NCBI GenBank assembly: GCA_011321845.1
Contig: DROQ01000134.1
Coordinates: 10,891-74,890 of the forward strand
Length of the DNA: 64,000 nucleotides
Reading direction: 5' to 3'
From: Planctomycetota bacterium
GTDB taxonomy: Bacteria; Planctomycetota; UBA1135; GCA-002748355
Made by a program: the position numbers and the translations under genes
Shown here: piece by piece, positions 6,390 to 54,193 of the stretch
Layout of the letters: each line of letters begins with the position of its first letter
Position numbering within the stretch: the stretch's first letter is position 1
The notes under the pieces: generated by a model
The model's input: the letters and a program-made list of their open reading frames with translations, nothing else
Databases searched by the model: none
What the model was told of the DNA's origin: nothing

Positions 6390-6449
6390 TCCTGTTCGGG
6401 ATCTCGAGAAGGGGGGGATCCCTCCTGGATTGAAGGGTATCCTTTGGGG

Positions 6450-8942: not shown

Positions 8943-8945
8943 GGC

Positions 8946-10826
8946 ATGCTCGGGCAGGCTAGGAGAGGAGGGAGGACCTGGCCCTGGGGCCTGGGGGCGG
9001 CGCTCGTCCTCCTGCTCCTCGCCCTCTGGGTGCACGACCCCCGGGGACTGCACTTCAAGGCCGACGATTTTCCCACGATCGCCTACGCGAGCGAGTTCGG
9101 GCGGGTGCTCCGGGACTTCGCCGGGCCCCAGTACGACCTGAGTTTCTTTGTGTTCCACCGGCCTCTGATCACCCTCTCCCTCTGGGGGGACTTCCAATTC
9201 TTCGGGGTCCAGCCCCTGGGCTTTTTCGTGATGAACCTCCTGGCCTTTTGGATTTCCCTGGTTCTGCTCCAGCGGATCCTCGCCCTCGCGATGGGGGGGG
9301 CCGCCGGGGAGATCGCCGGGTTGGTTCTCGCCCTGCTCTGGCTCTTCCACCCCGTCCCCATCGCTTCCCTGGAGTGGGTGGTGGGGCGGGTGGACACCCA
9401 TGTCGTCCCCTGGATCCTGGCGGCGGTCTATTTCCATCTCCGGGCGCGCAGGGGGGGAGCGGTTTGGCCCGTCTGGCTCTCCGCCGTTCTCGCCCTGCTG
9501 ACCAAGGAGTCCGCCCTGGGCCTTCCCCTGATCCTCCTGGGGGTGGACCTCCTGGACCGGGGGAAGAATGCCCCGAAGCAACCGGGCCTCCCCTCGCTCG
9601 TCTTCCTGGTTCTCATCCCCCTGAACCTCCTCTTTCGTTGGATCTATCTCGGACAACTCCTCGGAGGCTACGGCTTTTTGAAGGCCGCCCGCCTCGACCT
9701 CCCCGCCATGCTCGAGGGTCTTGCCAACACCCTCTCCCTCTCGCTCTTTCCGCGGGAGGTCTCCAGCCCCCTGCTCCAGTGGGGTCTCCCCGCTCTCCTC
9801 GTGGCAGGCCTTCTCCTCTTCTGCCGGCAGGCGGGAAAAGGGGGCTGGCGGCGCCTGGCCGGCATCCTTCTGCTGGGGATGGGGCTCTTCGGACCGCTGG
9901 CCCTGCTGCTGCCTTCGATGCGGGATCCCGCCAACCAGCGCTACGCCTATCTGGCCTGCATGGGACCTTGGCTCGGAGCCCTGGCCCTGCTCCAACTCCC
10001 CGCCCGTGAGGGGTCGCGGCCCAGGACCCTCTCCCCCCTGTTTCTCCTCGCCCTGCTCTGGCTCCTTCCCGCCCAGACGCGGGAGAAGGGCCGAATGGCG
10101 GTGCATGACCGCTTCGTCGCCCAGACCCTGCGCCTCATGGGAGAGGCCGCCCGCATGGAGGCGGGCATTGCGCCGAACCTGCCCCTGGTCCTCTCGGGCC
10201 GGGCCGGGGCGGCCTGCCATCCCCAGCGCTTCCTCTGGGGTCTGGGTTCGATTCAGAAGCCTCCCTTCGTGCGCGCGCCCCAGTTCCAGCGGGAGGTGGT
10301 CAGCCTGCGCGCCCTGCATCCGAGCGCCACCCCCGTCCCCGAGTCTCTCGCCGCCGCCGGCCTCAAGGCCGTGGTCCGGGTCCGGGAGGATGGTGACAGC
10401 CTGCGCCTGGTCCTCCGCCGGGCGCAGAGGGTCCGCGAGGCCCGCCCCCTCGGTTTCACGGGGCGCCTCGATCTCGCGGTACAAAAACGCGCCAAAGCCC
10501 AGGGGGACAGGGGACCGGGTTTCGCCCTTGGGCCCGGGTTCGGGGGAGAGGTGGCCCTCTGCACCAGCCTGGGCTCCTACCTGCTCCGGCTCCCGACGCG
10601 GCCCCGGGAGCGCCTGAGCCTGTGGGAGCTGCTCACCCTTCCCATCCAGTCGGAGGGCGCTCCGCTGCCCGGCCTCTGGATCCTCTGGAACGCCTTCGAT
10701 CTCTGTCCCGAGCAGCCCCTCCAGCTCTTTTGGCGGGAAGGGGGGGAAGTGGTGCACGCCCGCCTTTTTGTTGACCGGGCCTTTACCAAGGGGTTGGCCC
10801 GCGCCATGGAGGGAGCCCGTCGATGA
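8946..10826 (+). CDS. Polytopic membrane protein, putative GT-C-type glycosyltransferase (PMT/TMTC-like N-terminal region)
   Basis: About 11 hydrophobic segments. First loop FKADDFPTIAY...FHRPLITLSLWGDFQFFGVQPLGFFVMNLL resembles the PMT_2/TMTC-type acidic-loop region. Starts 3 nt after the upstream stop (TGAGGCATG). Confidence 0.65.
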   Translation: MLGQARRGGRTWPWGLGAALVLLLLALWVHDPRGLHFKADDFPTIAYASEFGRVLRDFAGPQYDLSFFVFHRPLITLSLWGDFQFFGVQPLGFFVMNLLAFWISLVLLQRILALAMGGAAGEIAGLVLALLWLFHPVPIASLEWVVGRVDTHVVPWILAAVYFHLRARRGGAVWPVWLSAVLALLTKESALGLPLILLGVDLLDRGKNAPKQPGLPSLVFLVLIPLNLLFRWIYLGQLLGGYGFLKAARLDLPAMLEGLANTLSLSLFPREVSSPLLQWGLPALLVAGLLLFCRQAGKGGWRRLAGILLLGMGLFGPLALLLPSMRDPANQRYAYLACMGPWLGALALLQLPAREGSRPRTLSPLFLLALLWLLPAQTREKGRMAVHDRFVAQTLRLMGEAARMEAGIAPNLPLVLSGRAGAACHPQRFLWGLGSIQKPPFVRAPQFQREVVSLRALHPSATPVPESLAAAGLKAVVRVREDGDSLRLVLRRAQRVREARPLGFTGRLDLAVQKRAKAQGDRGPGFALGPGFGGEVALCTSLGSYLLRLPTRPRERLSLWELLTLPIQSEGAPLPGLWILWNAFDLCPEQPLQLFWREGGEVVHARLFVDRAFTKGLARAMEGARR

Positions 10827-12619
10827 AGCGGCCCAGGACCTGGACCCTCCTGGTGGGGCTCATGGGCTCCGGCCTGGGAGCGGCATCCCCTTTTTCGCAG
10901 GGAGCGCCCCCCGCCCTCGAGTTCGTCAGGATGCAGCGCAGGCAGTGGGGGAGTTCTGAAATAAGGGTCCTGAGGCGGCGGGGGAGGATCGTCGGGGTGG
11001 TCCTCCAAAAGGCGCCCCCCTCCCTCGAGGGGATCGAGTTGCCCTTCGCCTTTCCTTTTCCGACTTCCTGCGAGCGGATCGAGGTCTGGGAGCCTCCCGG
11101 AGGCAAGGGCCTGGTCCTTTTCGAGGCCGGGGTGCGGGAGGACCTCTGGGTGCATGTGATCCGTCGCTGGGGGGAGTCCTTCCACGGCTACAGCTTGAAG
11201 GTCCCGGGCGGGCGCCTTCCGCCTCTGCGCTTTGCTCCCATCATGGACCTTGCGGGGGAGACTCTGAGTTTCCTTTACGAGGACCGAGGGGGGATCCACT
11301 TCGAGGTGCACTCCTTTACGGCGCGGGCCCTGCCGGTTCTTTTCAGCAGGACTCTCGCTTCCCTTCCCACCCGGGTCCAGCTTCAGACGGTTTTGCACGA
11401 TCCTTGGATCGAGGTGCGTGTGGATGGCGCGAGGTGGAAGGGACCCGGGGAGCGGGTCTTCCGCGAGGGCTCCTTCCGGGAGGATCGCTTCCTTCACCCG
11501 CTCGCGGCCTTTCCCATTCCCTCGGTCCCCCTGCTGGACCTGGGAGGCATCCCCGAGAAGGGGGAAAAAACCGCGCAATTCTTTTTGAAAAACCCCGGGC
11601 GCCTGCCTCTGCCCCTGCAATGGTCCTTTTCCAAGAAAAGCGGCTGGAAACTCAGGATCCGTCCCCAGGCGGGGACCCTCAAGCCGGGGGAGAAGCGCGC
11701 CTTTACCCTCAGGGTCCAGGATGGGGGGCCGGGCGGGAGCCCGACCCTTTCCCTGGGCCTGATTGCCCGAAGCCCCAGCGGGGGAGGGGATCCTCTCGTG
11801 GAAATCCCCCTGCGGGGCCGGCGGAGCGCGGTCCCCGACCAGACTCCCCCGGAGCTGCGCCCGGAGCGGATCCGGCTGCGGTTCGCGCCGGAGATGCGCA
11901 TCCTTGTGGAGGGCCTGCCGGGAGCGGTCCGTGACAGCCATCCCCCGATCCGCTTGGGAGGACCGGGGGGCAAGGAGGCCCTGGCCTCCGAGGACGGGGC
12001 CTTCCGTCTCCTTGTTCCGCGGACACCTGGGGGGAAGGTCCTGCTCTGGACCCAGGACGCCCTCGGCAACCGCGGCCGCCCGATTTCCGTGGGCCGGCTC
12101 GAGGACCGGGAGCCGCCCAAGTGGGATCCGTCCAGGATCCGACTGAGCCTTCCCGTAAACGGCAAGGTGCAGCTCCTGGGCGCTCCTGGCGCACTCCGGG
12201 ATGACACCCCTCCCCTGGAACTCGAGGTCGAGATCGACGGGAAAACCCTCCCCAAATCCTTTCCCGTTCGCCGGGATGGATCCTTCCGGCTGCGCCTCGC
12301 GGCTCGGCCCGGGCAGCGCATCCTCCTGGTTGCTCGGGACAGTTCCGTTCCCTCCAGGCGCTCGCTCAAGCTGCCGGTGGGGATCGTCCTCCCCTATCTC
12401 GAGCGAAGCAGTTCCAAGGAGGCCTTGCTCCACGGTCCCCCCTTTGCTCCCTTCGAGCTGATCTTTCGGGCGGGCAAGACCCCTCTATCCAAGCGGAGGG
12501 GACGCTTGGACTCCAAGGGCAGAGCCAGTTTCGCCCTCCACCAAAAACTCTGGAGGGTCGAGCGGGTCCGCGTCCAGGACCCCGCCTCGGAGCGCTGGTA
12601 TGAGCTGCAATGGAAATAG
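10823..12619 (+). CDS. Secreted hypothetical protein with Ig-like repeats
   Basis: ATGA overlap with the upstream gene. Signal peptide MKRPRTWTLLVGLMGSGLGAASPFSQG. Internal ~90-aa duplication (DQTPPELRPERIRLRF...DGAFRLLV... and DREPPKWDPSRIRLSL...DGSFRLRL...). Confidence 0.7.
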   Translation: MKRPRTWTLLVGLMGSGLGAASPFSQGAPPALEFVRMQRRQWGSSEIRVLRRRGRIVGVVLQKAPPSLEGIELPFAFPFPTSCERIEVWEPPGGKGLVLFEAGVREDLWVHVIRRWGESFHGYSLKVPGGRLPPLRFAPIMDLAGETLSFLYEDRGGIHFEVHSFTARALPVLFSRTLASLPTRVQLQTVLHDPWIEVRVDGARWKGPGERVFREGSFREDRFLHPLAAFPIPSVPLLDLGGIPEKGEKTAQFFLKNPGRLPLPLQWSFSKKSGWKLRIRPQAGTLKPGEKRAFTLRVQDGGPGGSPTLSLGLIARSPSGGGDPLVEIPLRGRRSAVPDQTPPELRPERIRLRFAPEMRILVEGLPGAVRDSHPPIRLGGPGGKEALASEDGAFRLLVPRTPGGKVLLWTQDALGNRGRPISVGRLEDREPPKWDPSRIRLSLPVNGKVQLLGAPGALRDDTPPLELEVEIDGKTLPKSFPVRRDGSFRLRLAARPGQRILLVARDSSVPSRRSLKLPVGIVLPYLERSSSKEALLHGPPFAPFELIFRAGKTPLSKRRGRLDSKGRASFALHQKLWRVERVRVQDPASERWYELQWK

Positions 12620-12720
12620 CCGCTCCCCGAGGGTGGGAGCGGCGAGGAGCTTCGGGGGCCTGGCCCGAGTTCGGCCCCGACCGAGGATCTGGGAACCGGA
12701 ACGCAATGGCTCCGATAGGC

Positions 12721-14139
12721 TCAGAACCATAGTGGCATGAGGATGGGAGAGGGCCGGATGTCTCCCTCCTGATCCCCGAGCCGGATCGGGTTTCCCTTGT
12801 CGTCCACCCAGACGCCCTTTTTGTTGGGGAAGCCCCGCCATGCCAGGTATTTTTGCTTTTGGGCTCCGGTCAAGGGCTTTCCGTTTCGGAGGATGCGCAC
12901 CCTGTCGTCCAGGATGGTGTTGGTTCCATCCCTGTTTTTCCCGTCCACGGGGACGATGAACTGGACGATCCCCATTCCACCCAGGCCGCCCAAGTTCCCG
13001 GCCATCGACCGGCTGGGAGGGAAGGCGTATTTTTTGGAAAAGGGCTCCGAAGAGGTTTTCCCCAAACCGGAGACCCCGCCATCCGCGCTCACCGAGAAGG
13101 AATTGTCCTTTTCACCATAGGTCCCGCCATGCACATGGAGGTCAATGCCCTTTCTCGAGGCGAGGATGACCATTCCCCCTGATCCTCCTCCTCCGGCGCC
13201 TCCCCATTGGCTGCTTCCCCCGGGTTCGCCCCCACCCCCGTCTCCACCGTTGGCGCTGATCTGCCCCTTGGGACCGACGATGATCTTGCCGAGGGCGTAG
13301 ACGAGGACTGCACCTCCTCCTCCGCCCCCTCCGGCGCCCTTTTCGTCGAGACGGAAGTTCGGGCGATAGTAGCGGTCGCCCCCGCCTCCTCCTCCGCTCC
13401 CTCCAAAGGGTCGGAGGATTTCCCCGTGGATGAGCCGCTTTTGATGGACATCCACCGCCCATCCCCAGAAATCGTTGTCCTTGCGACGATCGAAGAGGAG
13501 GAGAGAGCCGGGGGCTCCTCCCAAGACCTTGCTTCGGCCCTGGCCAAAACCCCCAAAGCCGATCTGTTGGACATTGCGGAGCGTTTTGGGATCAAAGCGG
13601 AGGGGGAAATAGGGGTCTCCCTTGGTGGAGAAGCTCCCACCACCCCCTCCCGCGCCGGAGATCCCGCCCGTGGTGTTGGCCAATCCTCCCACCCCGCCCA
13701 GTCCGAGGATCCCGAAGGGGCCGAAGCCCATTTCGCCTCCAGGGCTGTGTCCGGTGGAGTTGGGGGATCCCCGCCCTCCCGCGCCCCCGGCGGGTCCGGG
13801 CTTACCCCCGGGAGAGGGGAAGTTGGCGGAGTTCAAAGTGTCTACGTTGGGTGCGTTCTGTCCATCGCCATCCAGCCGCCCGTTTACGACCAGGTCACCG
13901 AGGGAGACCAGGATCAGGGGGTTGGGGCCTTCGGCGTGGACGCGGATTCCCTGGTCGATTTGGACTCTGTTGAAAACAAAGATCCCCCCTTTGAACACCT
14001 TGGATCCAATCTTTTGGCTGGCGGTGTTCAGCACCAGGCTTTTTTTGGGCTGGAAAACGGTCTGGGCTTGGAGCCCAGGGGCGCCGAGCAAAGCGAGCAG
14101 AAGGGACGAGGGAAGAAAGGGGAAGCGGGTGGATTCCAT
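12721..14139 (-). CDS. Secreted glycine-rich protein (predicted beta-solenoid)
   Basis: AGGAGG sits 6 nt before the ATG at 14139. Signal peptide MESTRFPFLPSSLLLALLGAPGLQAQ. Gly runs GGGGGGG alternate with short beta-like segments (AVLVYALGKIIVGPKGQISANGGDGGGG, GGMVILASRKGIDLHV). Confidence 0.8.
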   Translation of the reverse strand: MESTRFPFLPSSLLLALLGAPGLQAQTVFQPKKSLVLNTASQKIGSKVFKGGIFVFNRVQIDQGIRVHAEGPNPLILVSLGDLVVNGRLDGDGQNAPNVDTLNSANFPSPGGKPGPAGGAGGRGSPNSTGHSPGGEMGFGPFGILGLGGVGGLANTTGGISGAGGGGGSFSTKGDPYFPLRFDPKTLRNVQQIGFGGFGQGRSKVLGGAPGSLLLFDRRKDNDFWGWAVDVHQKRLIHGEILRPFGGSGGGGGGDRYYRPNFRLDEKGAGGGGGGGAVLVYALGKIIVGPKGQISANGGDGGGGEPGGSSQWGGAGGGGSGGMVILASRKGIDLHVHGGTYGEKDNSFSVSADGGVSGLGKTSSEPFSKKYAFPPSRSMAGNLGGLGGMGIVQFIVPVDGKNRDGTNTILDDRVRILRNGKPLTGAQKQKYLAWRGFPNKKGVWVDDKGNPIRLGDQEGDIRPSPILMPLWF

Positions 14140-14266
14140 TGCTGTCCTCCTGGAAAAGGAAAAGGGGGCTGTCCAGGAAGAAATAGGCGCGAAGGGGAGC
14201 CCGCGTAATGCGTCCTACTTGCAAATCATTGTTTTTTTGGTGGGAGGAATCGCTTCCCCCCTCGGG

Positions 14267-14683
14267 CTAGGTCGCGCCCGGGGTCTGGTTGAGCGAGGTG
14301 AAGTGGGAGGTCACCACGCGCCAGTCTTTGCCGGGGAAGAGGACGAGGGCCATGCTGAGATGGCCGCCGGTCTCGACCTCGTGGCCAGTGGGATCCACCT
14401 GGAGCAGGTTCCACTCGAGGACGACCGAAGAGAAGCGATCCTCGAAGACCTGGATCCTGGGGTTCTTGAAGGAGAGCTTGACGTTGTCGAGGTAGCGGAA
14501 TTCCTGATCGAGGGCTTCCTCAAAGGCTCCCCATCCCTGGTCCAGGCGACCCGAGTGGTCGATGTGCAGGAATTTGGGGTTCGTCCAGAAGTACGACCGA
14601 AAGGTCTTGAGATCCTGGCTGTTAAAGGCTTGGCGGATCTCACGGAGTCGGTCTTCGATGGCTTTGATCGTTCCTGAGCTCAT
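14267..14683 (-). CDS. NTF2-fold protein (SnoaL/DUF4440-like)
   Basis: Its length and the pattern IKAIEDRLREIRQAFNSQDLKTFRSYF...VVLEWNLLQVDPTGHEVETGGHLSMALV..DWRVVTSHFT are typical of NTF2-like proteins. I preferred the ATG at 14683 to the GTG at 14692. Confidence 0.65.
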   Translation of the reverse strand: MSSGTIKAIEDRLREIRQAFNSQDLKTFRSYFWTNPKFLHIDHSGRLDQGWGAFEEALDQEFRYLDNVKLSFKNPRIQVFEDRFSSVVLEWNLLQVDPTGHEVETGGHLSMALVLFPGKDWRVVTSHFTSLNQTPGAT

Positions 14684-14828
14684 GGTCCTCACAGATGCTC
14701 ATGGTCTCGGTCGGAGGAGATCCCTCCGGCCACGAATGGACGAAATCCGAATGACTGGTCCCCAGAGGGCTTTCTTCCCGAGAGCCGCAGCCTGGAGCCA
14801 CTCAATCGAAACGGTTGATAAGGGCGAT

Positions 14829-16160
14829 CTAGTGGTTTTTCAAACCTTTGTAGAAAGGCTCCTTTTCCTTTTCGTATCGAATCTTACCGAGGACGATGGC
14901 GGTCTCAACGAAGGATTTGTAAGAGAGAGGGTCCCCGTCCAGGATCAGGATGTCCGCGTCCTTGCCGACCTCCAGGGAGCCGATCCGGTCGTCCACTCCC
15001 AGGATCTTGGCGGCTTGGAGGGTGATGGTGGAGAGGGCCTTCTCATTGTCCATTCCGCCACGGACGGCGAAGCAGGCATCCATGAAGGGGGTGTTCAGAT
15101 CCCGGCCCAGGAGGCCCCCGAGGCCCATTCCGTTTCCGCCGAACCGCCCGGGGGGAGGAGTGACGGTCAAAGGAACCCCAGCCTTGGCCAGGATGTAGGG
15201 GCCTTGGATGTTGGAGCCGTTCTCTTCGATGCGAGTGGGGTCGGGCTCCACGTGGACTCGGGGCTGAAGAATACAGGAGGAGTGGGTGGCGGCGATTTCA
15301 TCGGGGATGATCCAGGCCTCGACGGGTCCATTGAGGACGATGCCTTTGCCAAGGAGTTTGGCGAGCCTCAAGGCTTCGCGGATCTGGGACACGGTCCGCG
15401 CTCCGGAAATGAGGAGTTTGGCCTTGCCTTCGAGGATGGGGAGGAGGGCGAGGCTGGCCTTGTCCGCCTTGGGGGCCTTGACCTTGGTGTCCCCGGCGAC
15501 TTTTTTCGCTTCATAGGCCGCTTTCTCCTTCTGGTACTTCCGGGTTTTTTCCAGGGCTTCTCTCAGCTTTTTCCAGGCGGAGGGGGAGGAGGGAACAGAC
15601 ATGGATTTCAATGTTCCCGCCTTGACGAGGATCTCGTCCAGCTCCCTGGGGATCAGCCTGAGGACTGCGGAATTGCCCGAAGGGAGGGTCCCCCCACGGG
15701 CGGGCATGTAGAGGTAACTGGTGATTCCGACCGCGATCGCCCTCCGGATCGTCTGGTCAAAGGGGTTGTAGTAGTCCTGAAAATCCTTGGACGGCCTGCC
15801 TCGCAGTCCCAAGGCAGGGGCCTGGACCATGATGAAGCCGGGGGAAATGTGCTTGTCCTTGGCGTCGAGGATCTTGCACCCCTTGGGGAGGTCCAGATGG
15901 AAACCGAAGGCTTTGATCTTGCCGTCCTCGACCAGAAGGGTGGCGTCCCGAACCACCTTGCCGTCTCCGATGTGGAAGGTTCCTCCCTGGATGGCCAGGG
16001 GCCGGGTTTTGGCCTTCTTGGCGGTTTTTTTCGCCGGAGCCTTGGGGGTGCTGGGTGGGGCGGCCTTTTTACTCCGCCGGCTCGAAGGACGAGTCTGGGA
16101 AGAAGCCCCGAGAGCGAGCATCCCAGTGGCGAGGGCGATCATTGCGTAGCTGCGTTTCAT
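14829..16160 (-). CDS. Secreted amidohydrolase-fold protein, module 9 (HxH motif absent)
   Basis: Signal peptide MKRSYAMIALATGMLALGASSQ from the ATG at 16160. N-terminal LLVEDGKIKAFG...ILDAKDKHISPGFIMVQAP, where HxH would be expected. C-terminal DDRIGSLEVGKDADILILDGDPLS. Confidence 0.75.
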   Translation of the reverse strand: MKRSYAMIALATGMLALGASSQTRPSSRRSKKAAPPSTPKAPAKKTAKKAKTRPLAIQGGTFHIGDGKVVRDATLLVEDGKIKAFGFHLDLPKGCKILDAKDKHISPGFIMVQAPALGLRGRPSKDFQDYYNPFDQTIRRAIAVGITSYLYMPARGGTLPSGNSAVLRLIPRELDEILVKAGTLKSMSVPSSPSAWKKLREALEKTRKYQKEKAAYEAKKVAGDTKVKAPKADKASLALLPILEGKAKLLISGARTVSQIREALRLAKLLGKGIVLNGPVEAWIIPDEIAATHSSCILQPRVHVEPDPTRIEENGSNIQGPYILAKAGVPLTVTPPPGRFGGNGMGLGGLLGRDLNTPFMDACFAVRGGMDNEKALSTITLQAAKILGVDDRIGSLEVGKDADILILDGDPLSYKSFVETAIVLGKIRYEKEKEPFYKGLKNH

Positions 16161-16209
16161 TTCAGTCTTGGTCCTGGTTTGTTCCTTCCATGTTTCGGGC
16201 TTGAAATGC

Positions 16210-17778: not shown

Positions 17779-17834
17779 GATCTGTACGCCTTTACTTGCT
17801 TTTGGATCTCTTGCTTGCATCACCCGCATCCGGG

Positions 17835-23388: not shown

Positions 23389-23462
23389 CGGTACCAAAAG
23401 GTTGAAGGAACGAAAGATACGGTGCTGGTTCTTGGAGGAAGGACCTTGGATCGGGAGGTTCA

Positions 23463-24680: not shown

Positions 24681-24685
24681 TGGAT

Positions 24686-28356: not shown

Positions 28357-28536
28357 ATGCCGATCTATCGTTTCTTATGTGGCACGGATATCTTTGAATA
28401 TGAAATGCCCACCAAGGCCGAAGCCCAATTCCTATGCCTCCAAGAGCATGGAAGCCCCTGCGTGTTCCAGGAGGAGGTGGAAATCCCCCCTGCTGAGGAG
28501 CAGAGTCGTTCCGACCAGGAATCTTCCTCTACCTAG
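28357..28536 (+). CDS. Small hypothetical protein (59 aa); the N-terminus resembles a degenerate FmdB-type zinc-ribbon start
   Basis: AAGAGGA sits 4 nt upstream of the ATG at 28357. Begins MPIYRFLCGTDIFEYEM (compare the MPIYEYRC..C...FE family start) but lacks paired CxxC motifs. Acidic tail. Confidence 0.35.
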   Translation: MPIYRFLCGTDIFEYEMPTKAEAQFLCLQEHGSPCVFQEEVEIPPAEEQSRSDQESSST

Positions 28537-28602
28537 GGCATCTTCTCCACGTAGCGGATGGGAAGCCCTCTCTCCCCGGAAGCAGCCTGAACCTGGGGAA
28601 GC

Positions 28603-31089
28603 ATGGAAATAGAGGGCTATGAAATCCTCGGATCCTTGGGCGCTGGGGGAATGGGGGATGTCTATCTTGCTCGAGATGTCAAGCTGGACCGGATGGTTGC
28701 GCTCAAGCTGCTCTCGGAGAAGCTTTGCGCCCAGGCAGGGTTTCGCACGCGGTTCCTCCGGGAAATCCATGCTCTCGCACGGCTCAAACACGCCAACCTC
28801 GTCCCTGTTTTCGAGGGCGGCATCCATGGAAGAACGCCTCATTATTCCATGGCTTTTGTCCCGGGCCGGAGCCTCCAACAGGTTCTGAGAGTCCTGCGCG
28901 CCCGGCGGGACAGGGGTCTGGAATGGTTTACTCCCGAAGCCCTGGAAGAAGCGGCCGGTCTCCAATTCACGGGCACCAGCTATATCGAAATGATCCTCTG
29001 GTGGATCCTGGGCCTCGCCGACGCCCTCACCCACGCCCACCAGAAAGGAATCCTGCACCTGGATCTCAAGCCCTCCAACGTCATGATCACCCCGGATGGG
29101 ACACCCATTCTCCTGGATTTCGGGGTGGCCCAGATCCTCGAGAAGGGCTGGGGCAAGGGGGAGTTCTGTGGGACCCCCTCCTACATGGCTCCCGAGCGCT
29201 TGCTGAGTCGGGGAAGGCATGTGGGGGAGTTTTCGGACGCTTACAGCCTGGCGGTTCTCTTGTTCGAACTCCTGACTCTGGAGTTGCCGGTTCCCGGGAG
29301 GGGGATGATCGAGCTTTGTCGGAACCACCGGAACGGGGTCCTCAGGGATCCCCGAGACCTCCAGGAGAAGATCCCCGTCGAGCTGGCCCAGATCCTGAGG
29401 AAGGCTCTGGCCAAGGAGCCCGCGGTGAGCTATCTCGATGTCCGTTCCTTCGCGGAGGACTTGACGAAGTTTCGGGATTTCGAGCCCTTGCAGCTTCCGG
29501 GCATTCCTCTCGGCCTGCGTCTTCGGCGCATCGCCCGGAAATGGCGCCGCCCTCTTCTCCGCGGAGCGGGGGGACTGGTTTTGGGGGCTTGCCTCCTTCT
29601 GCTCTTTTTCTATGGGGCCCGATGGAGAAAAGGAGCTAGCGAGACGGAGAGGGAGGCGGAGGTCCAGGCTTACTCCTTTTTGAGTATGGCCAGGAAGGCT
29701 TTGGAGAGCCGGGATCTGAGGGGGACCCAACATTTTCTCCAGCTTGCCCGGGGGATGTCCAAGGATCCCAGGCTTGTGGAAGGGGTCGCCGGCCTCGAAA
29801 CGAGCCTGGCCGCGGAGAGGGACCAGGCCATCCGCCTGCTGAGGAACAAGGTTTTGGCCAAGGACGCTGGAGGAGTCGGCGAGCTGGTCCAGCGCCTGCG
29901 CCCCCTGATCCAGGGGGATCCCCATTTGCGTCCTCTCCTGCTCCAGGGAATGGCTCTTGAGCGAGAAAGGAGGGAGAGGGACTGGCTCCTTTCCAAGGAC
30001 GAGGAAGTTCAGAAGGCGGCGCTTTTTCGGCTCGCCTGCGATCTTTCCAAGGGGGTTGTCAGCGAGGGGGCGAGGCTCCTGGCCTTTCGCAAAATCCTTC
30101 AGGAGGCGCGTCTTCCCGAAGAAGCGTTGCTCTGTCTTTGGGCCGGGGGTTGGAGTCGATGGAAGGGAGAGCTGCGGGTGGGAATCGGGCGATGGGAGGA
30201 TCATGTCCAGCTCACCCTCCTCCTCCTTCTCGCCTATGACCCCAAGGAACCCTTCGCGACCTGGGCGAGGAGGCAGAACAAAAAGTATTTCGACTTCAAG
30301 TGGAAGGACAGCAGGATCCAAAGGCCCCTTCTTCCGGGCCTGGCGACCTATCAGCGAGAGGCCAGAGCGCAGGGAGCCGAGGCTCTCTACCAAAAGTTGC
30401 GTGGTTTCGGGCGCTTCTTGCGCTTCTACCAGAGAGGGGCTTTTCAATGGCCGGGGATTGGATTCGCGGTGTATCGGGCTCCCCTGTTCTATGGGCTCCA
30501 GCTCCGTCTCGCCTGGGGGCTCCCACTCGAGGAGAGAGAGGGGCTGGAGTTGCTCCGAATCGCCCCTCTGCGGCTCAGGCTCAAGGTCCTCTGGGCCCTT
30601 TTTTGGTCCCGAAGGGGTCCCCCCTCTCCAGAACTTCTGGAACTCCTCGGCTCCCGTTGGAAGGGAGGAATGAACCGGGATGAAGGGGAAATGCTCTCCA
30701 TCCTCGCCCATTGGAACCCAAGCTCCGCTTGGGCTTTTTTTCAACGATTCGGTTTGAACAAGGGGTTGGATCCTAGGGAGTTTGCGTTCTTCTTGAGTGC
30801 GATTCCACCGGCCAAGACCGAGTCCTTTTGCAAGGAGGTTCTTGGGGATCTGGCCTCTCCCAGGGTCTACCGGGAGGGGGTTCAACGGTTCCATGCTGGA
30901 TTCAAAGCGCCCTCTCTGGCTTCGCGGAATTTGGAAGGAGGTGATCCCCGGATCCTGGCGGATGCGCTCGCCCTCATTCGAGCGGCGGATGTGAGCGACA
31001 TTCCCATGCTGAAGCGCCTCTCCGAAAGTCCCTTCATGATGATTCGAGAAGAGGCCTCGAAGCGGATGCGCGCTCTGGAGGGGAGGTGA
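28603..31089 (+). CDS. Membrane Ser/Thr protein kinase (non-RD: HLD catalytic loop) with a large helical C-terminal domain
   Basis: LGAGGMGDVYLA (G-loop), VALKLL, GILHLDLKPSNVMI, LLDFGVAQ, GTPSYMAPE. TM segment GGLVLGACLLLLFFYGA. C-terminal HEAT-like helices. Confidence 0.9.
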   Translation: MEIEGYEILGSLGAGGMGDVYLARDVKLDRMVALKLLSEKLCAQAGFRTRFLREIHALARLKHANLVPVFEGGIHGRTPHYSMAFVPGRSLQQVLRVLRARRDRGLEWFTPEALEEAAGLQFTGTSYIEMILWWILGLADALTHAHQKGILHLDLKPSNVMITPDGTPILLDFGVAQILEKGWGKGEFCGTPSYMAPERLLSRGRHVGEFSDAYSLAVLLFELLTLELPVPGRGMIELCRNHRNGVLRDPRDLQEKIPVELAQILRKALAKEPAVSYLDVRSFAEDLTKFRDFEPLQLPGIPLGLRLRRIARKWRRPLLRGAGGLVLGACLLLLFFYGARWRKGASETEREAEVQAYSFLSMARKALESRDLRGTQHFLQLARGMSKDPRLVEGVAGLETSLAAERDQAIRLLRNKVLAKDAGGVGELVQRLRPLIQGDPHLRPLLLQGMALERERRERDWLLSKDEEVQKAALFRLACDLSKGVVSEGARLLAFRKILQEARLPEEALLCLWAGGWSRWKGELRVGIGRWEDHVQLTLLLLLAYDPKEPFATWARRQNKKYFDFKWKDSRIQRPLLPGLATYQREARAQGAEALYQKLRGFGRFLRFYQRGAFQWPGIGFAVYRAPLFYGLQLRLAWGLPLEEREGLELLRIAPLRLRLKVLWALFWSRRGPPSPELLELLGSRWKGGMNRDEGEMLSILAHWNPSSAWAFFQRFGLNKGLDPREFAFFLSAIPPAKTESFCKEVLGDLASPRVYREGVQRFHAGFKAPSLASRNLEGGDPRILADALALIRAADVSDIPMLKRLSESPFMMIREEASKRMRALEGR

Positions 31090-33872
31090 GCGGCCCTTCT
31101 CCGATACCCACTCCCTTTGGGAGTTGGAAAAAGGGTCCCTTCCATCTGGGACCCTGGGTTCTCCTTGCCCTTGTTTCCAGGAACGATCGATTCTTGATGT
31201 TCGAGGCCAAAGACAGGGCAATGGATCGTCGGGTCTTTCTTGTCTTTTCCTGGGAGGGGGAGCCCGCCTTGCTGGATCTCCACCAAGCCTGGGGGAAGTT
31301 TTCAGGACCTCCCCTTCCCCGAGTTCTCCAGCTTGCCAAGGTGGATGGACCCGAAGGGGAGAGCCTCTCCTGTTTGGTCCTCGAAGGAATGCAGGGAGTG
31401 GCCTTCCCCCCCCGACTCAAGAGAGCCCGGTGGATCGAGTTGGGGCAGACCCTCTGCCTGGCGATGCAGGAACTCCTGGATTCGGGTCTGGGATACTCCG
31501 AGTTTTCATCCCAGGATCTTCGCATGGATCGGGAGGGGGAGGTTCTCCTGTTGCCTCCCTTTCCTTCCTCTGGGGCTCAAAAGGGTGGGGGGCTTTCCCA
31601 GCATTCCGGGCGCCGGGCGGTGAGAAGCATCGCCGGGCTGTTGCTTCAGGGACTCAAGGGATCCAAGCAGAGGGACCTGGGAGAGCAGGGAAGGGACTTG
31701 AAGGGGCTCCCCGCCGATCTTCGCTTGGTGCTGCGCAATTGCTTCAGGGGTGAGGCTGGGACGAGATACGCAAATCCTCGGCAATTGGGATGGGAACTGG
31801 GGAGGATTCTCCGTCATGAGCCGGTCCCGAATCCCGGGCGGAATCTGAGGAAGGGACTGGAACGGATCCTGGGGGCGATCCTGCTTGTCGCGGTTCTGCT
31901 CCTTTTTGCCCAGGGAGCCTTGCGCCTTCTCCAGGCTCGCAGCCAGGCTTTGTCCCTGGAGGCCCAGAGGATCGAAAACTTCGGTTTGCTCCTGGGTGAC
32001 TTTCGCGCGGGTTTGGAGGAGGGATCCTTCGAGAGGGCGGCCAAGCTCCTGGAAAATCTGGAGGCGATGAAGCTTCGGCAGGGGGAGAAGCTTCTCAACC
32101 AGGCGAAGGGAGATTTTCAAAGGAAATTGCGCGAACACTTTGGAGAACTCTTTCTTTTGGCCGAAGCGAAACCCGATTTGAAGCGGATTCGGACCTTGGC
32201 CCAAGGCTTGTTTTTCTTGCGCTGGGGTCCTTCCCATCTATGGCCCAGGCCTGGAAAGGAATTCCTGCAAAAGATCCAAAAGGTGCGAAGGCAGGCGGAG
32301 CACGCGAGCCATTTCCTCCAGTCCTTCACTTCGCTTCCCACCTTCCTGGAAGGACAAACCCTGCGGCGGGTGATGAGTCCGGATCCTTTGCGGAAACAGT
32401 TCCAGCGTCTTTGTAGGGACAAGCCCGACTGCCTCCCCTATGCAGAACAGGCCCTCATGGAGTTGAGAAAGGGCTTGGACCCGAGATCCTCCCTCCTTCT
32501 TCTGGAAGTGTTTCTGGCCCTCCCCGAGGACCGACGGCTTGAATGGTTGCAGCAATGGCTGCCCGAGGCGTCGACCGAGGAAATCCTTTTTGTCTGTCTT
32601 TCCTCGGCCTTTCGGGAGCGGGAGCGGTCCCTGCCGATTCTCGACAAGGTTCTCGATGTTTTGGAAAAGAGATCGTCCGAGGTCCTTCAGGGGAGAGACC
32701 TTTTTGGAGATGAGGTCCACAACCGAGTCTCCAGGGCGCTTGTGACGGTCTATTCCGCCAAGGAGACCTGGCCTTTTTGGAAAAAGCATTATCCCCTTTT
32801 CGAACCCCTTTGCTTCGGCTACCCCCGAACTCTGGGATCGTCCCTTCTCCTCATGCGGGGGATCCTGGACCCCAAGGGAACGGAGAAGCGTTGGCACAAC
32901 TGGGTGCGGAGGGGGGACCTCAGGGTCTTCTTCCACCCGGAGCTTTGCACGGATCCCAGGCTCCAGGCAGAGGCCGAAGGCCTGGTTCGTCTCTGCGTCC
33001 GCCCCGCTTCGAAGAGCGTCTCCGTGCCCGCCTATTGGAGCAAACCCGGCTTTCGGAATTTGGCCCCCTTCGCCCTCCTCTACTTTTTTTCACGGAGCCC
33101 ACAGCACTTTCCCCTGCAGGATCCCCAACTTCGATCTTTGTTCTGGGTCAAGGTCTTCGAGAGCTTTTCCGAAGGGGGATTTACCTTCAGGTCCTTCCCA
33201 ATCGTGAAACGTTTCCCCGAGAAGGACTGGGCTCTTCCCCTCTTTCGCCGTTTCCTCCGGCTCAATGGGGATTCTCATATGGCCCTTTGGCAATTCTATT
33301 TCCAAGGAGAGGGCCGCTATCTTCTCCTGGACTGCCTGGTCCAAAAGCGCGCCTTCCCTTTCCTGGAGGACCATCTCGGGGAGATCCTGGAGTCGGACCG
33401 TTTCCCCGCGCAAAAGTTTTGCCTGAGCCTGTTGCTCAAGGCCCGCCAGGCCGGATTGCTTTCCGAGCTTTGGGGTCCTCGCTTACGCTCTTATCTATCG
33501 AGAGTCGCGAGCCCCTACCTTCGATCCCTTGCCCTGGGATGCTTGGAGGAAGTGGGCGCCCTGGAGATCCAAACCTTTCTTGAGCTTCGCTCCTCTTCGC
33601 TGCCCACGGTTCGGAAACGGGCTTGGACCTGGCTCCTTGAGGCGGGGCATCTGGAGAAAGCCTGGGACATCCTTGGGGGGAGCGAGGTCCCCCCCAAGCT
33701 TCTGCCTCCCCTCGGAGACTTGAAGATGGTCGAAACCCTCTTCCAGCGCCTGGCCCAAACTTCGGCCCGCGGTGGGGCTGCCCAAGGGGAGGGAGGTCCC
33801 AAGGAGGTTCCCATCCTCTCCGCCAGGAGAGCCCATTATTTCAAAGCCCTTGAATCCTTACGGAATCGGTGA
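31086..33872 (+). CDS. Membrane pseudokinase-like protein with a long HEAT/ARM-like C-terminal domain
   Basis: GTG start overlaps the kinase stop (GTGA at 31086-31089). The ~250-aa N-terminal region has kinase-like spacing, but I see no recognisable G-loop, VAIK Lys, HRD or DFG (GYSEFSSQDLRMDREGEVLLLPPFPSS). TM segment ILGAILLVAVLLLFAQGAL. The start codon is uncertain. Confidence 0.65.
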   Translation: MSGPSPIPTPFGSWKKGPFHLGPWVLLALVSRNDRFLMFEAKDRAMDRRVFLVFSWEGEPALLDLHQAWGKFSGPPLPRVLQLAKVDGPEGESLSCLVLEGMQGVAFPPRLKRARWIELGQTLCLAMQELLDSGLGYSEFSSQDLRMDREGEVLLLPPFPSSGAQKGGGLSQHSGRRAVRSIAGLLLQGLKGSKQRDLGEQGRDLKGLPADLRLVLRNCFRGEAGTRYANPRQLGWELGRILRHEPVPNPGRNLRKGLERILGAILLVAVLLLFAQGALRLLQARSQALSLEAQRIENFGLLLGDFRAGLEEGSFERAAKLLENLEAMKLRQGEKLLNQAKGDFQRKLREHFGELFLLAEAKPDLKRIRTLAQGLFFLRWGPSHLWPRPGKEFLQKIQKVRRQAEHASHFLQSFTSLPTFLEGQTLRRVMSPDPLRKQFQRLCRDKPDCLPYAEQALMELRKGLDPRSSLLLLEVFLALPEDRRLEWLQQWLPEASTEEILFVCLSSAFRERERSLPILDKVLDVLEKRSSEVLQGRDLFGDEVHNRVSRALVTVYSAKETWPFWKKHYPLFEPLCFGYPRTLGSSLLLMRGILDPKGTEKRWHNWVRRGDLRVFFHPELCTDPRLQAEAEGLVRLCVRPASKSVSVPAYWSKPGFRNLAPFALLYFFSRSPQHFPLQDPQLRSLFWVKVFESFSEGGFTFRSFPIVKRFPEKDWALPLFRRFLRLNGDSHMALWQFYFQGEGRYLLLDCLVQKRAFPFLEDHLGEILESDRFPAQKFCLSLLLKARQAGLLSELWGPRLRSYLSRVASPYLRSLALGCLEEVGALEIQTFLELRSSSLPTVRKRAWTWLLEAGHLEKAWDILGGSEVPPKLLPPLGDLKMVETLFQRLAQTSARGGAAQGEGGPKEVPILSARRAHYFKALESLRNR

Positions 33873-34884
33873 ACTCGGTCTCCTTGGTGGCGGGGTTCAG
33901 GATTACGCATTGGACCCAAAAATTGCGGAAACCCTTGGGGAAGAGGGCGAAGGGGTAGACCCTGGTTTTTCCTTTGCCGAAGGGATCCAGGGTCGTGGCC
34001 TCGAGAAGGAAGGGGAAGGGAGGGGTGAGGCTCAGATGCCATTCTCCCACAGGGCCGGGGATGGGAGTTTTCAGGAGACCAGGGGAGAGATAAACGATCC
34101 CCAATCCCGAGGCGCCGATCTGTCCTCCCTGGATCTCGAAAAAGAGCTTGTCCTTGCGTCCGGCGTCCGGGTGCAGGGTCTCGATGCCTTTGAGGGTCTC
34201 CTCTCCGAGCCCATAGGCCTTGGAGATCAAAACGGTCTGGAGGACCGGTTCGATGAACACCCCCGTGGTCTCGAGGACGTCCAAGGTTCTCCCGCCCAGC
34301 GGGAGGGCGCGGGTTTGGCCGGCGGGCCGCTCGAAGGCGTAGACCTCTTTTTGAAAAGGGGCGGGGACCCGGGGCCTTTGGCTGTCCCGAGGGAGGTTCA
34401 GTTGCCCATGGATCGAGGGCCCATCCAAGGGCCATTTGGGGGCTTTGGGGAGGGCGATCTTGATCCCGAAATTCTGGGGGATCTGTTGGGGGAAGCCGAC
34501 GGTGAGCAAGAAGTTGTAGGCCTTTTGTCCTTGGTCCCCGAAACCGAAGAGGCGGAAGCTGGATTTGAGGACCTCTTTGTTCAGGTCGGGGTGCACTCCA
34601 TCCTTGTCATAGGGGACGTAGGAGAGGGTGATGTTTTCCTGCGTTGCGGCTTCCTCGTCCTGGGCCGTGAGGCGAAAACCGACCGCCGAGAACTTTCCGT
34701 TGAGGTAGCCTCTCGGTTGCATCATGAAAAGTTCGGTGGCTCCTCCCCGGGCGAGCCCTCGAACGGTCCCGTTGATTTTCCGGTTGGAAAACGCCTTCTC
34801 GAAAAAACCGTGGGCCATGAGACTGGAGCCCAGGAGAAGAAGGAGAAGCACCAAGAGCAGGAGGAGGCGTGGGGAGGGTCTCAT
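33841..34884 (-). CDS. Secreted hypothetical protein, paralog B of a tandem pair
   Basis: ATGA overlap with the upstream paralog (34884/34881). Signal peptide MRPSPRLLLLLVLLLLLLGSSLMAHG. Collinear similarity to the 34881-35894 product (F.MQP..., GFR...QD, F.LFG.G, FGI...LP...WP.DG). Confidence 0.75.
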   Translation of the reverse strand: MRPSPRLLLLLVLLLLLLGSSLMAHGFFEKAFSNRKINGTVRGLARGGATELFMMQPRGYLNGKFSAVGFRLTAQDEEAATQENITLSYVPYDKDGVHPDLNKEVLKSSFRLFGFGDQGQKAYNFLLTVGFPQQIPQNFGIKIALPKAPKWPLDGPSIHGQLNLPRDSQRPRVPAPFQKEVYAFERPAGQTRALPLGGRTLDVLETTGVFIEPVLQTVLISKAYGLGEETLKGIETLHPDAGRKDKLFFEIQGGQIGASGLGIVYLSPGLLKTPIPGPVGEWHLSLTPPFPFLLEATTLDPFGKGKTRVYPFALFPKGFRNFWVQCVILNPATKETEFTDSVRIQGL

Positions 34885-35894
34885 TGGGCCTTGACTCTGG
34901 CTGCGTCGGAGAAGCTGAGATGAAAGGGTTTGACCTGGAGGAAGGCGGCCTGTGCCCAGATGGTGGTTTTGGGGGGGAGGGTGAGGCTGGGGGTGGTGGC
35001 CTTGCCTTGCTTGTCCAGGGGGACGGCGGGGAGGTAGAGGCTCCCTGCAAGTGTGGGGAAGACGGTCCCGAAGGGGGTCGAAAGGGGAGTGGCGGCCTTG
35101 CTGCCCGAGATCAGGATGATGCCGAAGCCGCCGCCGAAGCGATCTCCAGCGAGCCGGAATCCCGTCTTGTCCGAGCGGCTCACAAGGGGAAAGAGGGACT
35201 CGGGGCCGAAGAGTTTCTCGTTGCTCCCGTAGGCGGAGGACTCGTTGAAGAACTGGAGGACGGGTTGGTCGAGCAGGACCCCGAGGCGGAAGGTGGAACC
35301 GGCCGGGCCGAAGGCCTGGGCGCTCCCGTTGCTCGCCTTTTTATAGGTCCACTGGGGTTTGGGAGTTGCGCTGCCCAGCTTGAGATTGGTTCCCGCCTGG
35401 TAGTGGACGGTGACACCGTCCTGAGGCCAGGTTCCTCGTGGGATAGGGAGGGTGAGGCGGATACCGAATTGTGCGGGGGCAACCACTGGGGTTCCGAGAG
35501 TGAGGGTATAGGAGTAGGCCGCGCTTCCCGAGCCACTGCCGAAGAGCTTGAAGTTCATCGAGGAACCCGCGACGACTCCTCCTGCGCTCGTGTCCGGTTT
35601 CCCCGTTGTTCCGGCAAAGCGGACGAGGGCCAGGTTGATGGTCTCCGCCGTGGACTGATCCTGGTCCTGCAGGACGATCCGGAAGCCACTGACCTTGCCG
35701 TAGCCCGTGTGCGCCTCGGGGGGCTGCATGAAATACAGAGTGTCCACCGTGCCTCCACCGTCCCGGACCGTCGCGGAGGTGTGGTTGGTGTTGTAAAAGG
35801 TCTTCTCGTTACGACCCTGGGGTGCCTGGGCCTCGAGGCCGGTGGTCAAACTGAGGAGGCAGGGAACCAGGAGAAGGAATAGCTGTTTTTTCAT
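34881..35894 (-). CDS. Secreted hypothetical protein, paralog A of a tandem pair
   Basis: The ATG at 35894 gives signal peptide MKKQLFLLLVPCLLSLTTGLEAQA (the track start at 35906 is a TTG). Located 49 nt downstream of the leuS stop, on the same strand. Confidence 0.75.
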   Translation of the reverse strand: MKKQLFLLLVPCLLSLTTGLEAQAPQGRNEKTFYNTNHTSATVRDGGGTVDTLYFMQPPEAHTGYGKVSGFRIVLQDQDQSTAETINLALVRFAGTTGKPDTSAGGVVAGSSMNFKLFGSGSGSAAYSYTLTLGTPVVAPAQFGIRLTLPIPRGTWPQDGVTVHYQAGTNLKLGSATPKPQWTYKKASNGSAQAFGPAGSTFRLGVLLDQPVLQFFNESSAYGSNEKLFGPESLFPLVSRSDKTGFRLAGDRFGGGFGIILISGSKAATPLSTPFGTVFPTLAGSLYLPAVPLDKQGKATTPSLTLPPKTTIWAQAAFLQVKPFHLSFSDAARVKAQ

Positions 35895-35943
35895 TGGTGA
35901 ATCCAAGGAAGAGGGGGGACTTCTCCAAGGATACCACAGCGGT

Positions 35944-53705: not shown

Positions 53706-54095
53706 TGTTGACTCCAATGAAAAGAAGGGGAGATGCCTCGAAAAAGAGGCGGAGAAACAGCTCGACTCAGGTGGGTAGGAAAGAAGATTCCTTTACCCTT
53801 CGAAGGGTAGGGGGGGCCTCGGAATGATTTGGGAATCCTGAGAACGAAAGGAAAACAAAAGAGAAAACAAAAGATAGGGCAGCCCTTTCCAGGGAGAAAT
53901 CCTGGGGGAATGCCCAGGGGGAAAGATCCTTGAATCCGACACAGCCCTGAAGAGAACACTACAGACAGCCCTCCAAAAGGGATTCTGCCAGAATCTGTTT
54001 CTGGGCATGTGTTTTTCCCAAGCGCCAGGCGAGCGTTTGATGAGGAAGTTGCGGTGGGTGGGGGAGATTCTTCCAGAACATGCTGGAGAGTCTTC

Positions 54096-54124
54096 ATTGT
54101 GAGAAACAATGTGACATCCGTCAA
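54096..54124 (-). promoter_or_regulatory. Putative sigma70-type promoter of ELW paralog 1
   Basis: The minus strand reads TTGACG-N17-CACAAT (TTGACGGATGTCACATTGTTTCTCACAAT). A CATTGT-N5-ACAATG dyad overlaps the -10 element. The analogous element is present upstream of paralogs 2 and 3. Confidence 0.4.
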
Positions 54125-54193
54125 TAGCTGGATTTGGGGGGCTCGACGCGATCTGGAAGGGGGCAAGGGAGATCCGCCAAGGAATCTCGGCCG

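Follow-up and report, generated by a model that had tools for sequence, protein, structure and literature searches.

The window analyzed here is a 64,000-nucleotide (nt) stretch of contig DROQ01000134.1 from a Planctomycetota bacterium. Near its middle lie two open reading frames (ORFs) on the forward strand, gene 1 and gene 2, each encoding a membrane protein with one transmembrane (TM) helix. The original prediction, made from the letters of the window, described them as an active Ser/Thr kinase and a co-translated, membrane-anchored pseudokinase. That description is supported by the intact catalytic motifs of gene 1 and by the kinase fold of the gene 2 cytoplasmic domain, the partnership of the two proteins being drawn from indirect evidence. 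Comparisons were made across four lineages of uncultured Planctomycetota, namely the window and the orthologous contigs L001, L003 and L006. The features of the pair are as follows.

28603..31089 (+): gene 1, bitopic membrane Ser/Thr kinase of the Hanks type, non-RD, 828 amino acids (aa); ORF with a Pfam Pkinase match and orthologs in L001, L003/L007 and L006
28603..29487 (+): gene 1 kinase domain, aa 1-295; catalytic motifs all intact and invariant in the four lineages
28885..28986 (+): conserved insert of ~30 aa between helices αD and αE, gene 1 aa ~95-128; an insertion relative to 21 other kinases
29056..29079 (+): gene 1 catalytic loop HLDLKPSN, aa 152-159, non-RD; LHLDLKPSN identical in the four lineages
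29116..29196 (+): gene 1 activation segment DFG...APE, aa 172-198, short (27 aa); no conserved Ser/Thr ahead of the P+1 loop
29551..29622 (+): gene 1 TM helix, aa ~317-340, predicted N-in; sole segment with a Kyte-Doolittle mean of at least 1.6, with 7 Lys/Arg before and 3 after
29623..31086 (+): gene 1 extracytoplasmic domain, 488 aa, family unrecognized; no Pfam and no PDB sequence match
31086..31089 (+): start/stop overlap GTGA, with GTG 31086-31088 over TGA 31087-31089; the junction reads GGGGAGGTGAGC
31086..33872 (+): gene 2, bitopic membrane protein, in all likelihood a pseudokinase, 928 aa; ORF with orthologs P0002, P0003 and L006:12484-15213
31851..31937 (+): gene 2 TM helix, aa ~256-284, predicted N-in; sole hydrophobic segment, with 4 Lys/Arg before and 1 after
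31938..33869 (+): gene 2 extracytoplasmic domain, 644 aa, family unrecognized; no Pfam and no PDB match

Both genes are under purifying selection and are real rather than chance ORFs. Each shares 46-55% identity with its orthologs in the three other lineages, where synteny is the same. Nonsynonymous divergence (pN) is 0.30-0.36 for both genes, far below synonymous divergence (pS, about 0.78); synonymous sites are saturated (pS about 0.75-0.8), and pN lies between 0.18 and 0.46 across all domains. GC content by codon position is near that of known genes of the window, with third positions (GC3) slightly lower. A 929-aa ORF on the opposite strand (28432..31221, -) spans all of gene 1, and we rejected it as a gene: it is open in the window only, antisense ORFs at the orthologous loci reaching no more than 165 aa, and is thus a chance ORF. 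It is nevertheless long enough to mislead gene calling by longest ORF.

The family is small. Clustering gave just three relatives of gene 2 among 5.8 billion proteins. The fourth lineage, L006, is a 230-kb JGI contig that was retrieved with the gene 1 ectodomain as query. Its gene 2 ortholog is intact (12484..15213, 909 aa) though uncalled in the public gene calls, and therefore family counts taken from protein databases are underestimates. At 12484-15213 the public calls give several short spurious genes instead. Scans of word-indexed proteins, species-representative genomes and JGI metagenomes added only L006 and a duplicate of L003. The latter is a contig from a Planctomycetota metagenome-assembled genome (L007, the same as L008) that holds the thymidine kinase gene, gene 1 and the beginning of gene 2, and the part of the gene 2 protein that it encodes does not differ from L003.

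The GTG within the overlap is the first possible start codon of the gene 2 ORF. The 4-nt overlap is kept in all four lineages, as GTGA in the window and L001 and as ATGA in L003 and L006, and a G-rich run resembling a Shine-Dalgarno sequence lies 4-9 nt upstream of the start in the window, L001 and L003. The conserved overlap predicts translational coupling of the two genes. Promoter and terminator scans returned results at chance level. Protein conservation in gene 2 begins at residue 9 (TPFGSW..G.HLGPWV), which places the start at the overlap; a start far downstream, which the original prediction had named as a possible refutation, is thereby contradicted. Co-occurrence in other genomes, proposed as a check, was strict: every relative of gene 1 lies directly upstream of a relative of gene 2 and vice versa (4/4), and no orphan copy of either gene was found among 5.8e9 or 1.84e9 proteins.

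Gene 1 is a clear kinase by sequence. Pfam Pkinase (PF00069) matches residues 6-273 with 122.6 bits (cut-off 31.7, E 2.5e-35), and many NCBIfam kinase models match as well. The motifs GAGGMG (13-18), VALK35, E54, HLDLKPSN (152-159), DFG (172-174) and APE (196-198) are invariant in the four lineages, and with them the catalytic residues G13xGGMG18, K35, E54, D154, N159, D172 and E198; mean identity over the domain is 73% (pN 0.18). Gene 1 thus looks catalytically competent, as predicted from its intact motifs. With HLD in place of HRD invariant across the lineages, it is a non-RD kinase, as the earlier reading had it. Non-RD kinases are as a rule independent of activation-loop phosphorylation. 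Gene 1 fits this type: neither its short loop nor the juxtamembrane segment of ~20 aa holds a Ser or Thr conserved in the four lineages. The αD-αE insert (RDRG.EWF...A..AAGL....SYIE) has invariant residues R99, R102-D-R-G105, E107-W-F109 and S126-Y127. The only other protein with it is the distant kinase P0019, which is of the RD type and whose ectodomain differs. The insert could serve for docking.

One TM helix per protein had been predicted, and one was found in each (aa 317-340 in gene 1, 256-284 in gene 2). The greater number of Lys and Arg on the N-terminal side of both helices indicates an N-in/C-out topology for both proteins. The ectodomains have no recognizable family: there was no Pfam match for gene 1 at E <= 1 or for gene 2 at E <= 10 (four orthologs), nothing better than E 0.6 among PDB sequences, and no relatives beyond the four lineages. 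The gene 1 ectodomain, whose relatives are orthologs only, has 45% mean identity and pN 0.37 against pS 0.75-0.80. No relationship between the two ectodomains could be detected (hhalign E 0.23); that comparison gave the sole hint of HEAT repeats, one weak HEAT-like motif that both proteins have near the C-terminus. Both are rich in Leu, Arg, Ala and Glu, a composition compatible with helical proteins. The label "HEAT/ARM-like" given earlier to the gene 2 ectodomain found no support by any sequence method (Pfam, PDB or hhalign).

The cytoplasmic domain of gene 2

The region of gene 2 ahead of its TM helix is of kinase-like size (about 255 aa), and the motifs reported as missing from it, the G-loop, catalytic Lys, HRD and DFG, are indeed absent. 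Positions below follow the window protein, with motifs mapped from hidden Markov model (HMM) and MAFFT alignments.

31086..31820 (+): gene 2 N-terminal extension and pseudokinase domain, aa 1-245; profile search, PDB profile, AlphaFold2 and Foldseek
31152..31394 (+): N-lobe of the pseudokinase domain, aa 23-103; best-conserved part of gene 2 by identity and pN
31242..31244 (+): Val53 in place of the catalytic (VAIK) Lys by HMM and MAFFT; Val invariant in 4/4 lineages
31494..31502 (+): Y137-S138-E139 at the position of HRD; IPR, PPR and YPN in orthologs
31554..31565 (+): invariant PPFP, aa 157-160, in the β8/DFG region; placed at DFG or at the P+1 loop, depending on the aligner

Simple searches do not find a kinase here. 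Pfam (its Pkinase model included), NCBIfam and single-sequence phmmer against the PDB gave nothing for the N-terminal ~250 aa, and the similarity of gene 2 to gene 1 by BLASTP (E 0.008) and hhalign (77% probability) covers the αH-αI/juxtamembrane stretch only. Profile methods reach further. With an HMM of the three orthologous N-terminal domains, PknB accounted for nine of the ten best PDB matches; the E-values are weak (0.04), yet the matches comprise two colinear stretches. An exhaustive search of the gene 2 N-terminal HMM against 1.84 billion (1.84e9) representative proteins, at a library-wide E <= 1e-3, returned 30 matches, consisting of two orthologs and 28 remote sequences (best 3.2e-7). 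All ten remote matches that were scanned are Pfam Pkinase proteins, and all 28 carry HRDLKPxN-type and DFG motifs. Seventeen of the 28 align over at least about 115 profile positions, from the N-lobe to αE and colinear with the kinase domain, and five more align from β5 into αE; helices αH-αI are also in register. MAFFT alignment of gene 2, gene 1 and 21 kinase domains independently gave the same register.

Structure prediction agrees with the profile searches. From a multiple sequence alignment (MSA) of 25 sequences, AlphaFold2 modeled the domain with a predicted local distance difference test (pLDDT) score of 86.3 and a predicted TM-score of 0.82, a model biased toward the kinase fold because the MSA is mostly of canonical kinases. 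Foldseek matched it to protein kinases only in the PDB, with PknB best (1mru, E 4.9e-11, TM 0.63), followed by PknA, PknG and the Rv3910/MviN entries 3oun, 3otv, 3uqc and 3ouk (E about 1e-9), to which sequence identity is 15-19%. As a control for circularity, the MSA was limited to the three orthologs. The resulting model is poor (pLDDT 49) and its TM-scores are low; the order β-β-αC-β-β-αE-αF-αH-αI is already present, and Foldseek returned kinases alone (PknB best, E 6e-5; 33 matches at E <= 1e-3). The kinase fold suspected for this domain is thereby borne out, and we regard its kinase homology as established.

The domain has lost its catalytic apparatus throughout. The G-loop GxGxxG has become S31-x-N33-x-x-F36, without its glycines, and the invariant Val53 replaces the catalytic Lys. 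The position of the catalytic Asp is not conserved (E, R, R and N in the four lineages). Ser141 and Asp144 stand for the Lys and Asn of the catalytic loop, the Asn position being Glu or Asp in orthologs. Equivalence of the PPFP motif is uncertain between the two aligners, and neither placement has the DFG Asp. The activation segment, between αE/β8 and αF, has lost at least 25 aa, the αF Asp is gone and the αG region is ~20 residues shorter; helices αH-αI are retained, with the juxtamembrane motif HEP(I/V) typical of such membrane kinases. We conclude with high confidence that gene 2 encodes a pseudokinase, and the loss of these motifs suggests that ATP binding and phosphotransfer are very probably both absent. 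The Pkinase model missed this domain, and catalogs built on Pkinase-model matches therefore likely miss such families.

Conservation is unevenly spread over gene 2. Mean identity in the N-lobe is 69% and pN is 0.21, values near those of the gene 1 kinase domain; in the C-lobe and ectodomain they are 44-50% and 0.36-0.39. More than half of the 91 invariant cytoplasmic residues fall within aa 1-104. Neither the loop remnant nor the juxtamembrane segment has a conserved Ser/Thr, and the loop of the L003 protein is without any Ser or Thr.

Bitopic Hanks kinases are a broad class, frequent in Planctomycetota-like genomes, and gene 1 and gene 2 both belong to it. In a full-length profile comparison, gene 2 residues 57-328 are colinear with gene 1 residues 71-385, through the TM helix (hhalign, 82%, E 1e-5), an alignment too weak on its own. 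The gene 2 HMM gives the orthologs of gene 1 scores of 12-20 bits; the best unrelated kinases, which are extreme values picked from 1.84 billion proteins, reach 32-46 bits.

A proposed heteromeric receptor

We propose, with modest confidence, that the products of gene 1 and gene 2 form a heteromeric receptor regulated by the pseudokinase. Both proteins would be made from one transcript, with the same N-in/C-out topology, and would assemble in the membrane, where their two different ectodomains would jointly sense a periplasmic cue. The pseudokinase domain would contact the kinase domain directly, most plausibly by its conserved N-lobe, as in the back-to-back dimers through which kinases of the PknB type are activated. 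Gene 2 would thus act as an allosteric regulator or co-receptor, not as an enzyme, and gene 1, which would not be regulable by its activation loop, would be controlled through the pseudokinase N-lobe. A physical complex, to which the overlap and the strict co-occurrence point, seems to us somewhat more probable than its absence. A specific allosteric contact through the N-lobe is offered only tentatively. The most far-reaching form of the proposal, an obligate receptor in which a dead co-receptor with its own ectodomain switches a non-RD kinase through the N-lobe in the manner of HER2/HER3 or of the receptor-kinase/pseudokinase co-receptor pairs of plants, gene 2 then founding a bacterial pseudokinase family beyond the seven catalogued so far, is speculative and on present evidence doubtful. 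What the analysis shows is the identity and layout of the two proteins, the motif losses, the conserved overlap, the co-occurrence and purifying selection; that gene 1 is active, that gene 2 does not bind ATP, that the two associate, that they touch through the N-lobe and which way regulation runs are inferred.

The shortage of conserved phosphorylatable residues bears on the mechanism: that neither protein has a conserved Ser/Thr in its loop or juxtamembrane segment argues against phospho-docking and for a contact mechanism. Dimerization through the N-lobe has a precedent in the MviN pseudokinase, which dimerizes back-to-back like canonical bacterial kinases and whose family constraints cluster in the N-lobe dimer interface (PMC12599244).

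Several observations weigh against the heteromeric receptor. The association is drawn from indirect evidence, and four lineages are too few for co-variation analysis. A 4-nt overlap is weak evidence for a complex because such overlaps are the commonest in bacterial operons. The ectodomains, unrelated to each other or to anything known, suggest no signal. Asp76 of the PknB dimer interface aligns with an invariant Gln82 in gene 2 and with Glu71 in gene 1, so a PknB-like interface would differ in detail; the structure of the PknB D76A mutant is among the Foldseek matches. Met46 of gene 2 aligns with Leu33 of PknB. An origin of gene 2 as a recent tandem duplicate of gene 1 was considered and rejected, given the lower HMM bit scores of gene 1 and the unrelated ectodomains. 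The bias of the 25-sequence model, noted above, belongs with these points.

Four other explanations were weighed. Gene 2 may be a phospho-scaffold in the manner of MviN, that is, a substrate of gene 1 which, once phosphorylated, recruits an effector such as an FHA protein, its fold serving as a docking platform. Rv3910/MviN, the closest structurally characterized bacterial analog, is among the fold matches; it is phosphorylated by PknB and then binds FhaA (PMC12599244). The cytoplasmic part of gene 2 also holds five conserved Ser/Thr (T/S9, S31, S55, S73 and S193). Most of these conserved Ser, however, fall within conserved blocks of the core (FSWEG, FSGPPLP), the flexible regions in which phosphorylation sites are usually found (loop remnant and juxtamembrane segment) have no conserved Ser/Thr, and no gene for an FHA protein, PP2C or other phospho-reader occurs in the 64-kb window or within 10 kb at the three orthologous loci. 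We consider a phospho-scaffold unlikely. Genes for a sigma factor or a second kinase were likewise absent from the window and the orthologous loci.

Gene 2 may instead be an independent membrane scaffold like YukC/EssB, serving another envelope machine or sensing on its own account, with adjacency to gene 1 reflecting shared regulation only. YukC/EssB, whose motifs are degraded and whose activation loop is reduced, shows that a bitopic pseudokinase can be a scaffold without any kinase partner (PMC12599244). The entire neighborhood of the pair is conserved, including the thymidine kinase gene, the two secreted paralogs converging on gene 2 and the leucyl-tRNA synthetase (LeuRS) gene, so that synteny by itself does not mark gene 1 as the partner. 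This explanation fits poorly with an overlap kept strictly across lineages that are only about 50% identical, with co-occurrence in four of four lineages without an orphan copy, and with a neighborhood that contains no secretion-system or machine genes, and we judge it improbable.

An atypical enzyme, with a non-canonical activity like the AMPylation of SelO or the glutamylation of SidJ, is very improbable. The invariant charged residues of the N-lobe and αE (E40, D43, R44, D64, H66, E100, E129 and R146) would suit one, and divergent "pseudokinases" can be enzymes, as a review stresses (PMC12599244). Against this, every element that would hold nucleotide or metal is missing, from the G-loop and the β3 Lys to the Asn of the catalytic loop (Asp or Glu here) and the DFG Asp; the catalytic-Asp position is unconserved and the activation segment is truncated. 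Hardly tenable is the idea that gene 2 has no kinase fold and shares with many membrane kinases only a C-terminal helix pair and juxtamembrane motif, set on an unrelated N-terminal domain: the strongest and most frequent local match is indeed αH-αI/juxtamembrane (profile positions about 190-250) and the ortholog-only model is poor, but the colinear remote matches through the N-lobe to αE (17 of 28, with five more from β5), the agreeing MAFFT register and the kinase order and exclusive kinase matches of that same model all speak against it.

If the heteromeric receptor is correct, several consequences follow. A complex of the two proteins would mean that allosteric signaling by kinase-pseudokinase receptors is not a eukaryotic invention, and the pair would be a compact two-gene system for regulating a non-RD bacterial kinase without activation-loop phosphorylation. 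The gene 2 domain also illustrates that a pseudokinase invisible to sequence searches of Pfam, NCBIfam and the PDB is recoverable by exhaustive profile search combined with structure prediction. The practical weight of these points is limited, as the pair is known from only four lineages of uncultured Planctomycetota. Large bacterial kinomes commonly include pseudokinases.

Neighboring genes

Gene order around the pair is conserved on the orthologous contigs: an amidohydrolase cluster (-), thymidine kinase (+), the kinase (+) and gene 2 (+), followed by two converging genes of ~340 aa (-), LeuRS (-) and DUF2752 (+). The amidohydrolase cluster (14829-24935, -) comprises five amidohydrolase-family genes among ORFs without a family match and lies upstream of the pair at all orthologous loci. 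Between the thymidine kinase gene and gene 1 is a small ORF (28357-28536, +; 59 aa, MPIYRFLCG...) with AGAGGA upstream. It has orthologs in L001 (65 aa) and L006 (61 aa) that share three invariant Cys and an AEA motif, and is absent from L003, where the gap between the thymidine kinase gene and gene 1 is below 100 nt. It may be co-transcribed with the kinase pair.

At its 3' end (33841-33872), gene 2 overlaps the converging ORF 33841..34884 (-) by 32 nt, as also in L001, L003 and L006. Dual coding with the converging ORF may be why the final ~15 residues of gene 2 (RRAHYFKALESLRNR) hardly vary. That ORF and the next (34881-35906, -) are tandem paralogs of about 340 aa (34% identity, BLASTP E 3e-31). 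Both have N-termini resembling signal peptides, are without a Pfam match and lie beside the kinase pair in all four lineages, and both could act in the periplasm in connection with the receptor.

Other features of the window lie farther from the pair. Four consecutive ORFs at 50610-63877 (-) of about 1035, 1039, 1033 and 758 aa have a GC content at first codon positions (GC1) of 0.46-0.52, below that of other ORFs of the window. Similar weak, sub-threshold Pfam matches (PQQ_2, POT1PC or DUF5980) recur among them, which suggests a tandem array of paralogs. Positions 6000-12000 have a GC content of 0.69, compared with about 0.60 elsewhere in the window, and a strongly negative AT skew. In this region, 6444..8942 (+) encodes a PSCyt1 "Planctomycete cytochrome c" protein, which has two CxxCH motifs and fits the phylum, and 8946..10826 (+) encodes a polytopic membrane protein; long antisense ORFs with GC1 of 0.84-0.86 also cover it. 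A tRNA-Arg (CCT) at 5556-5632 (-) is the sole RNA gene found in the window by Rfam or ARAGORN.

Comparison with known systems

Bacterial pseudokinases that are anchored in the membrane, have all motifs degraded and have a shorter activation loop are already known, in the form of ActPs3/MviN, GLW and YukC/EssB (PMC12599244). Gene 2 resembles each of these in part. Like gene 2, MviN (Rv3910)/ActPs3 has a cytoplasmic kinase fold with degraded motifs and an activation-loop deletion, a TM helix on its C-terminal side and then an ectodomain, and MviN works with an active Hanks kinase, as proposed for gene 2 (PMC12599244). Unlike gene 2, MviN is fused behind a polytopic flippase, is not encoded beside the PknB gene, is actinobacterial and binds carbohydrate with its ectodomain. 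Gene 2, from Planctomycetota, encodes a bitopic protein that stands alone, is coupled to a kinase and has an unrelated ectodomain. In sequence the likeness is at the level of the fold only. Gene 2 does have the activation-loop deletion (at least 25 aa) and C-terminal TM helix (256-284) of ActPs3, features that are not unique to ActPs3. That family is further marked by bulky aromatic residues that fill the ATP pocket and by dimer residues of the L750/D793 type, and gene 2 falls outside its described taxonomic range.

The GLW family (O'Boyle et al. 2025) and gene 2 have both lost all three catalytic residues, carry a TM helix after the pseudokinase domain and have a hydrophobic residue in a Leu-rich β3 in place of the ATP-binding Lys (V-[FL]-L-V in gene 2). 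As described, GLW proteins come mostly from Proteobacteria and the family has no indels of its own, in contrast to the two large deletions of gene 2. The GLW motif is absent at the HRD position of gene 2 and its orthologs (YSE, IPR, PPR and YPN), and gene 2 is therefore not a GLW protein. YukC/EssB, of type VIIb secretion, is like gene 2 a bitopic protein with an N-terminal cytoplasmic pseudokinase domain, a degraded G-loop and motifs and a reduced activation loop; it acts through dimerization and scaffolding (PMC12599244). It differs in occurring in Firmicutes, in a secretion-system locus and without a kinase partner, and no such genes lie near gene 2. Neither of the characterized proteins, MviN and YukC/EssB, is encoded together with a kinase.

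Gene 1 shares with receptor kinases of the PknB type the succession of kinase domain, TM helix and ectodomain, and PknB is also the best structural match of the gene 2 domain. PknB is an RD kinase that is activated by Thr phosphorylation in its activation loop; its ectodomains are of the PASTA kind, and its juxtamembrane linker is long and phosphorylated. Gene 1, in contrast, is non-RD, has no conserved Ser/Thr in its loop or linker and has a different ectodomain. The PknB dimer is a homodimer; the dimer proposed here would join gene 1 to a dead partner.

HER2/HER3, the JH1 and JH2 domains of JAK and the receptor kinase/pseudokinase co-receptors of plants all combine an active kinase with a dead homolog in allosteric regulation, and in the eukaryotic receptor pairs both members are single-pass proteins with different ectodomains. 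These have no evolutionary link to gene 1 and gene 2, and they rely on ligand-induced association or on fusion, where the present pair would rely on operon coupling.

A preprint atlas of bacterial Ser/Thr kinases sorts about 300,000 kinases into 42 families, and its main text is silent on Planctomycetes, operon pairing and non-RD kinases. Bacterial pseudokinases have been catalogued, with few studied experimentally (PMC12599244). Text searches of the literature turned up no account of a bacterial Hanks kinase that shares an operon with a membrane pseudokinase, although an empty search does not prove absence, and the view that such arrangements are rarely characterized in bacteria agrees with the literature searched. 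We conclude that the pseudokinase family represented by gene 2 is probably new and very rare, and that its genetic arrangement beside an active kinase is probably new as well.

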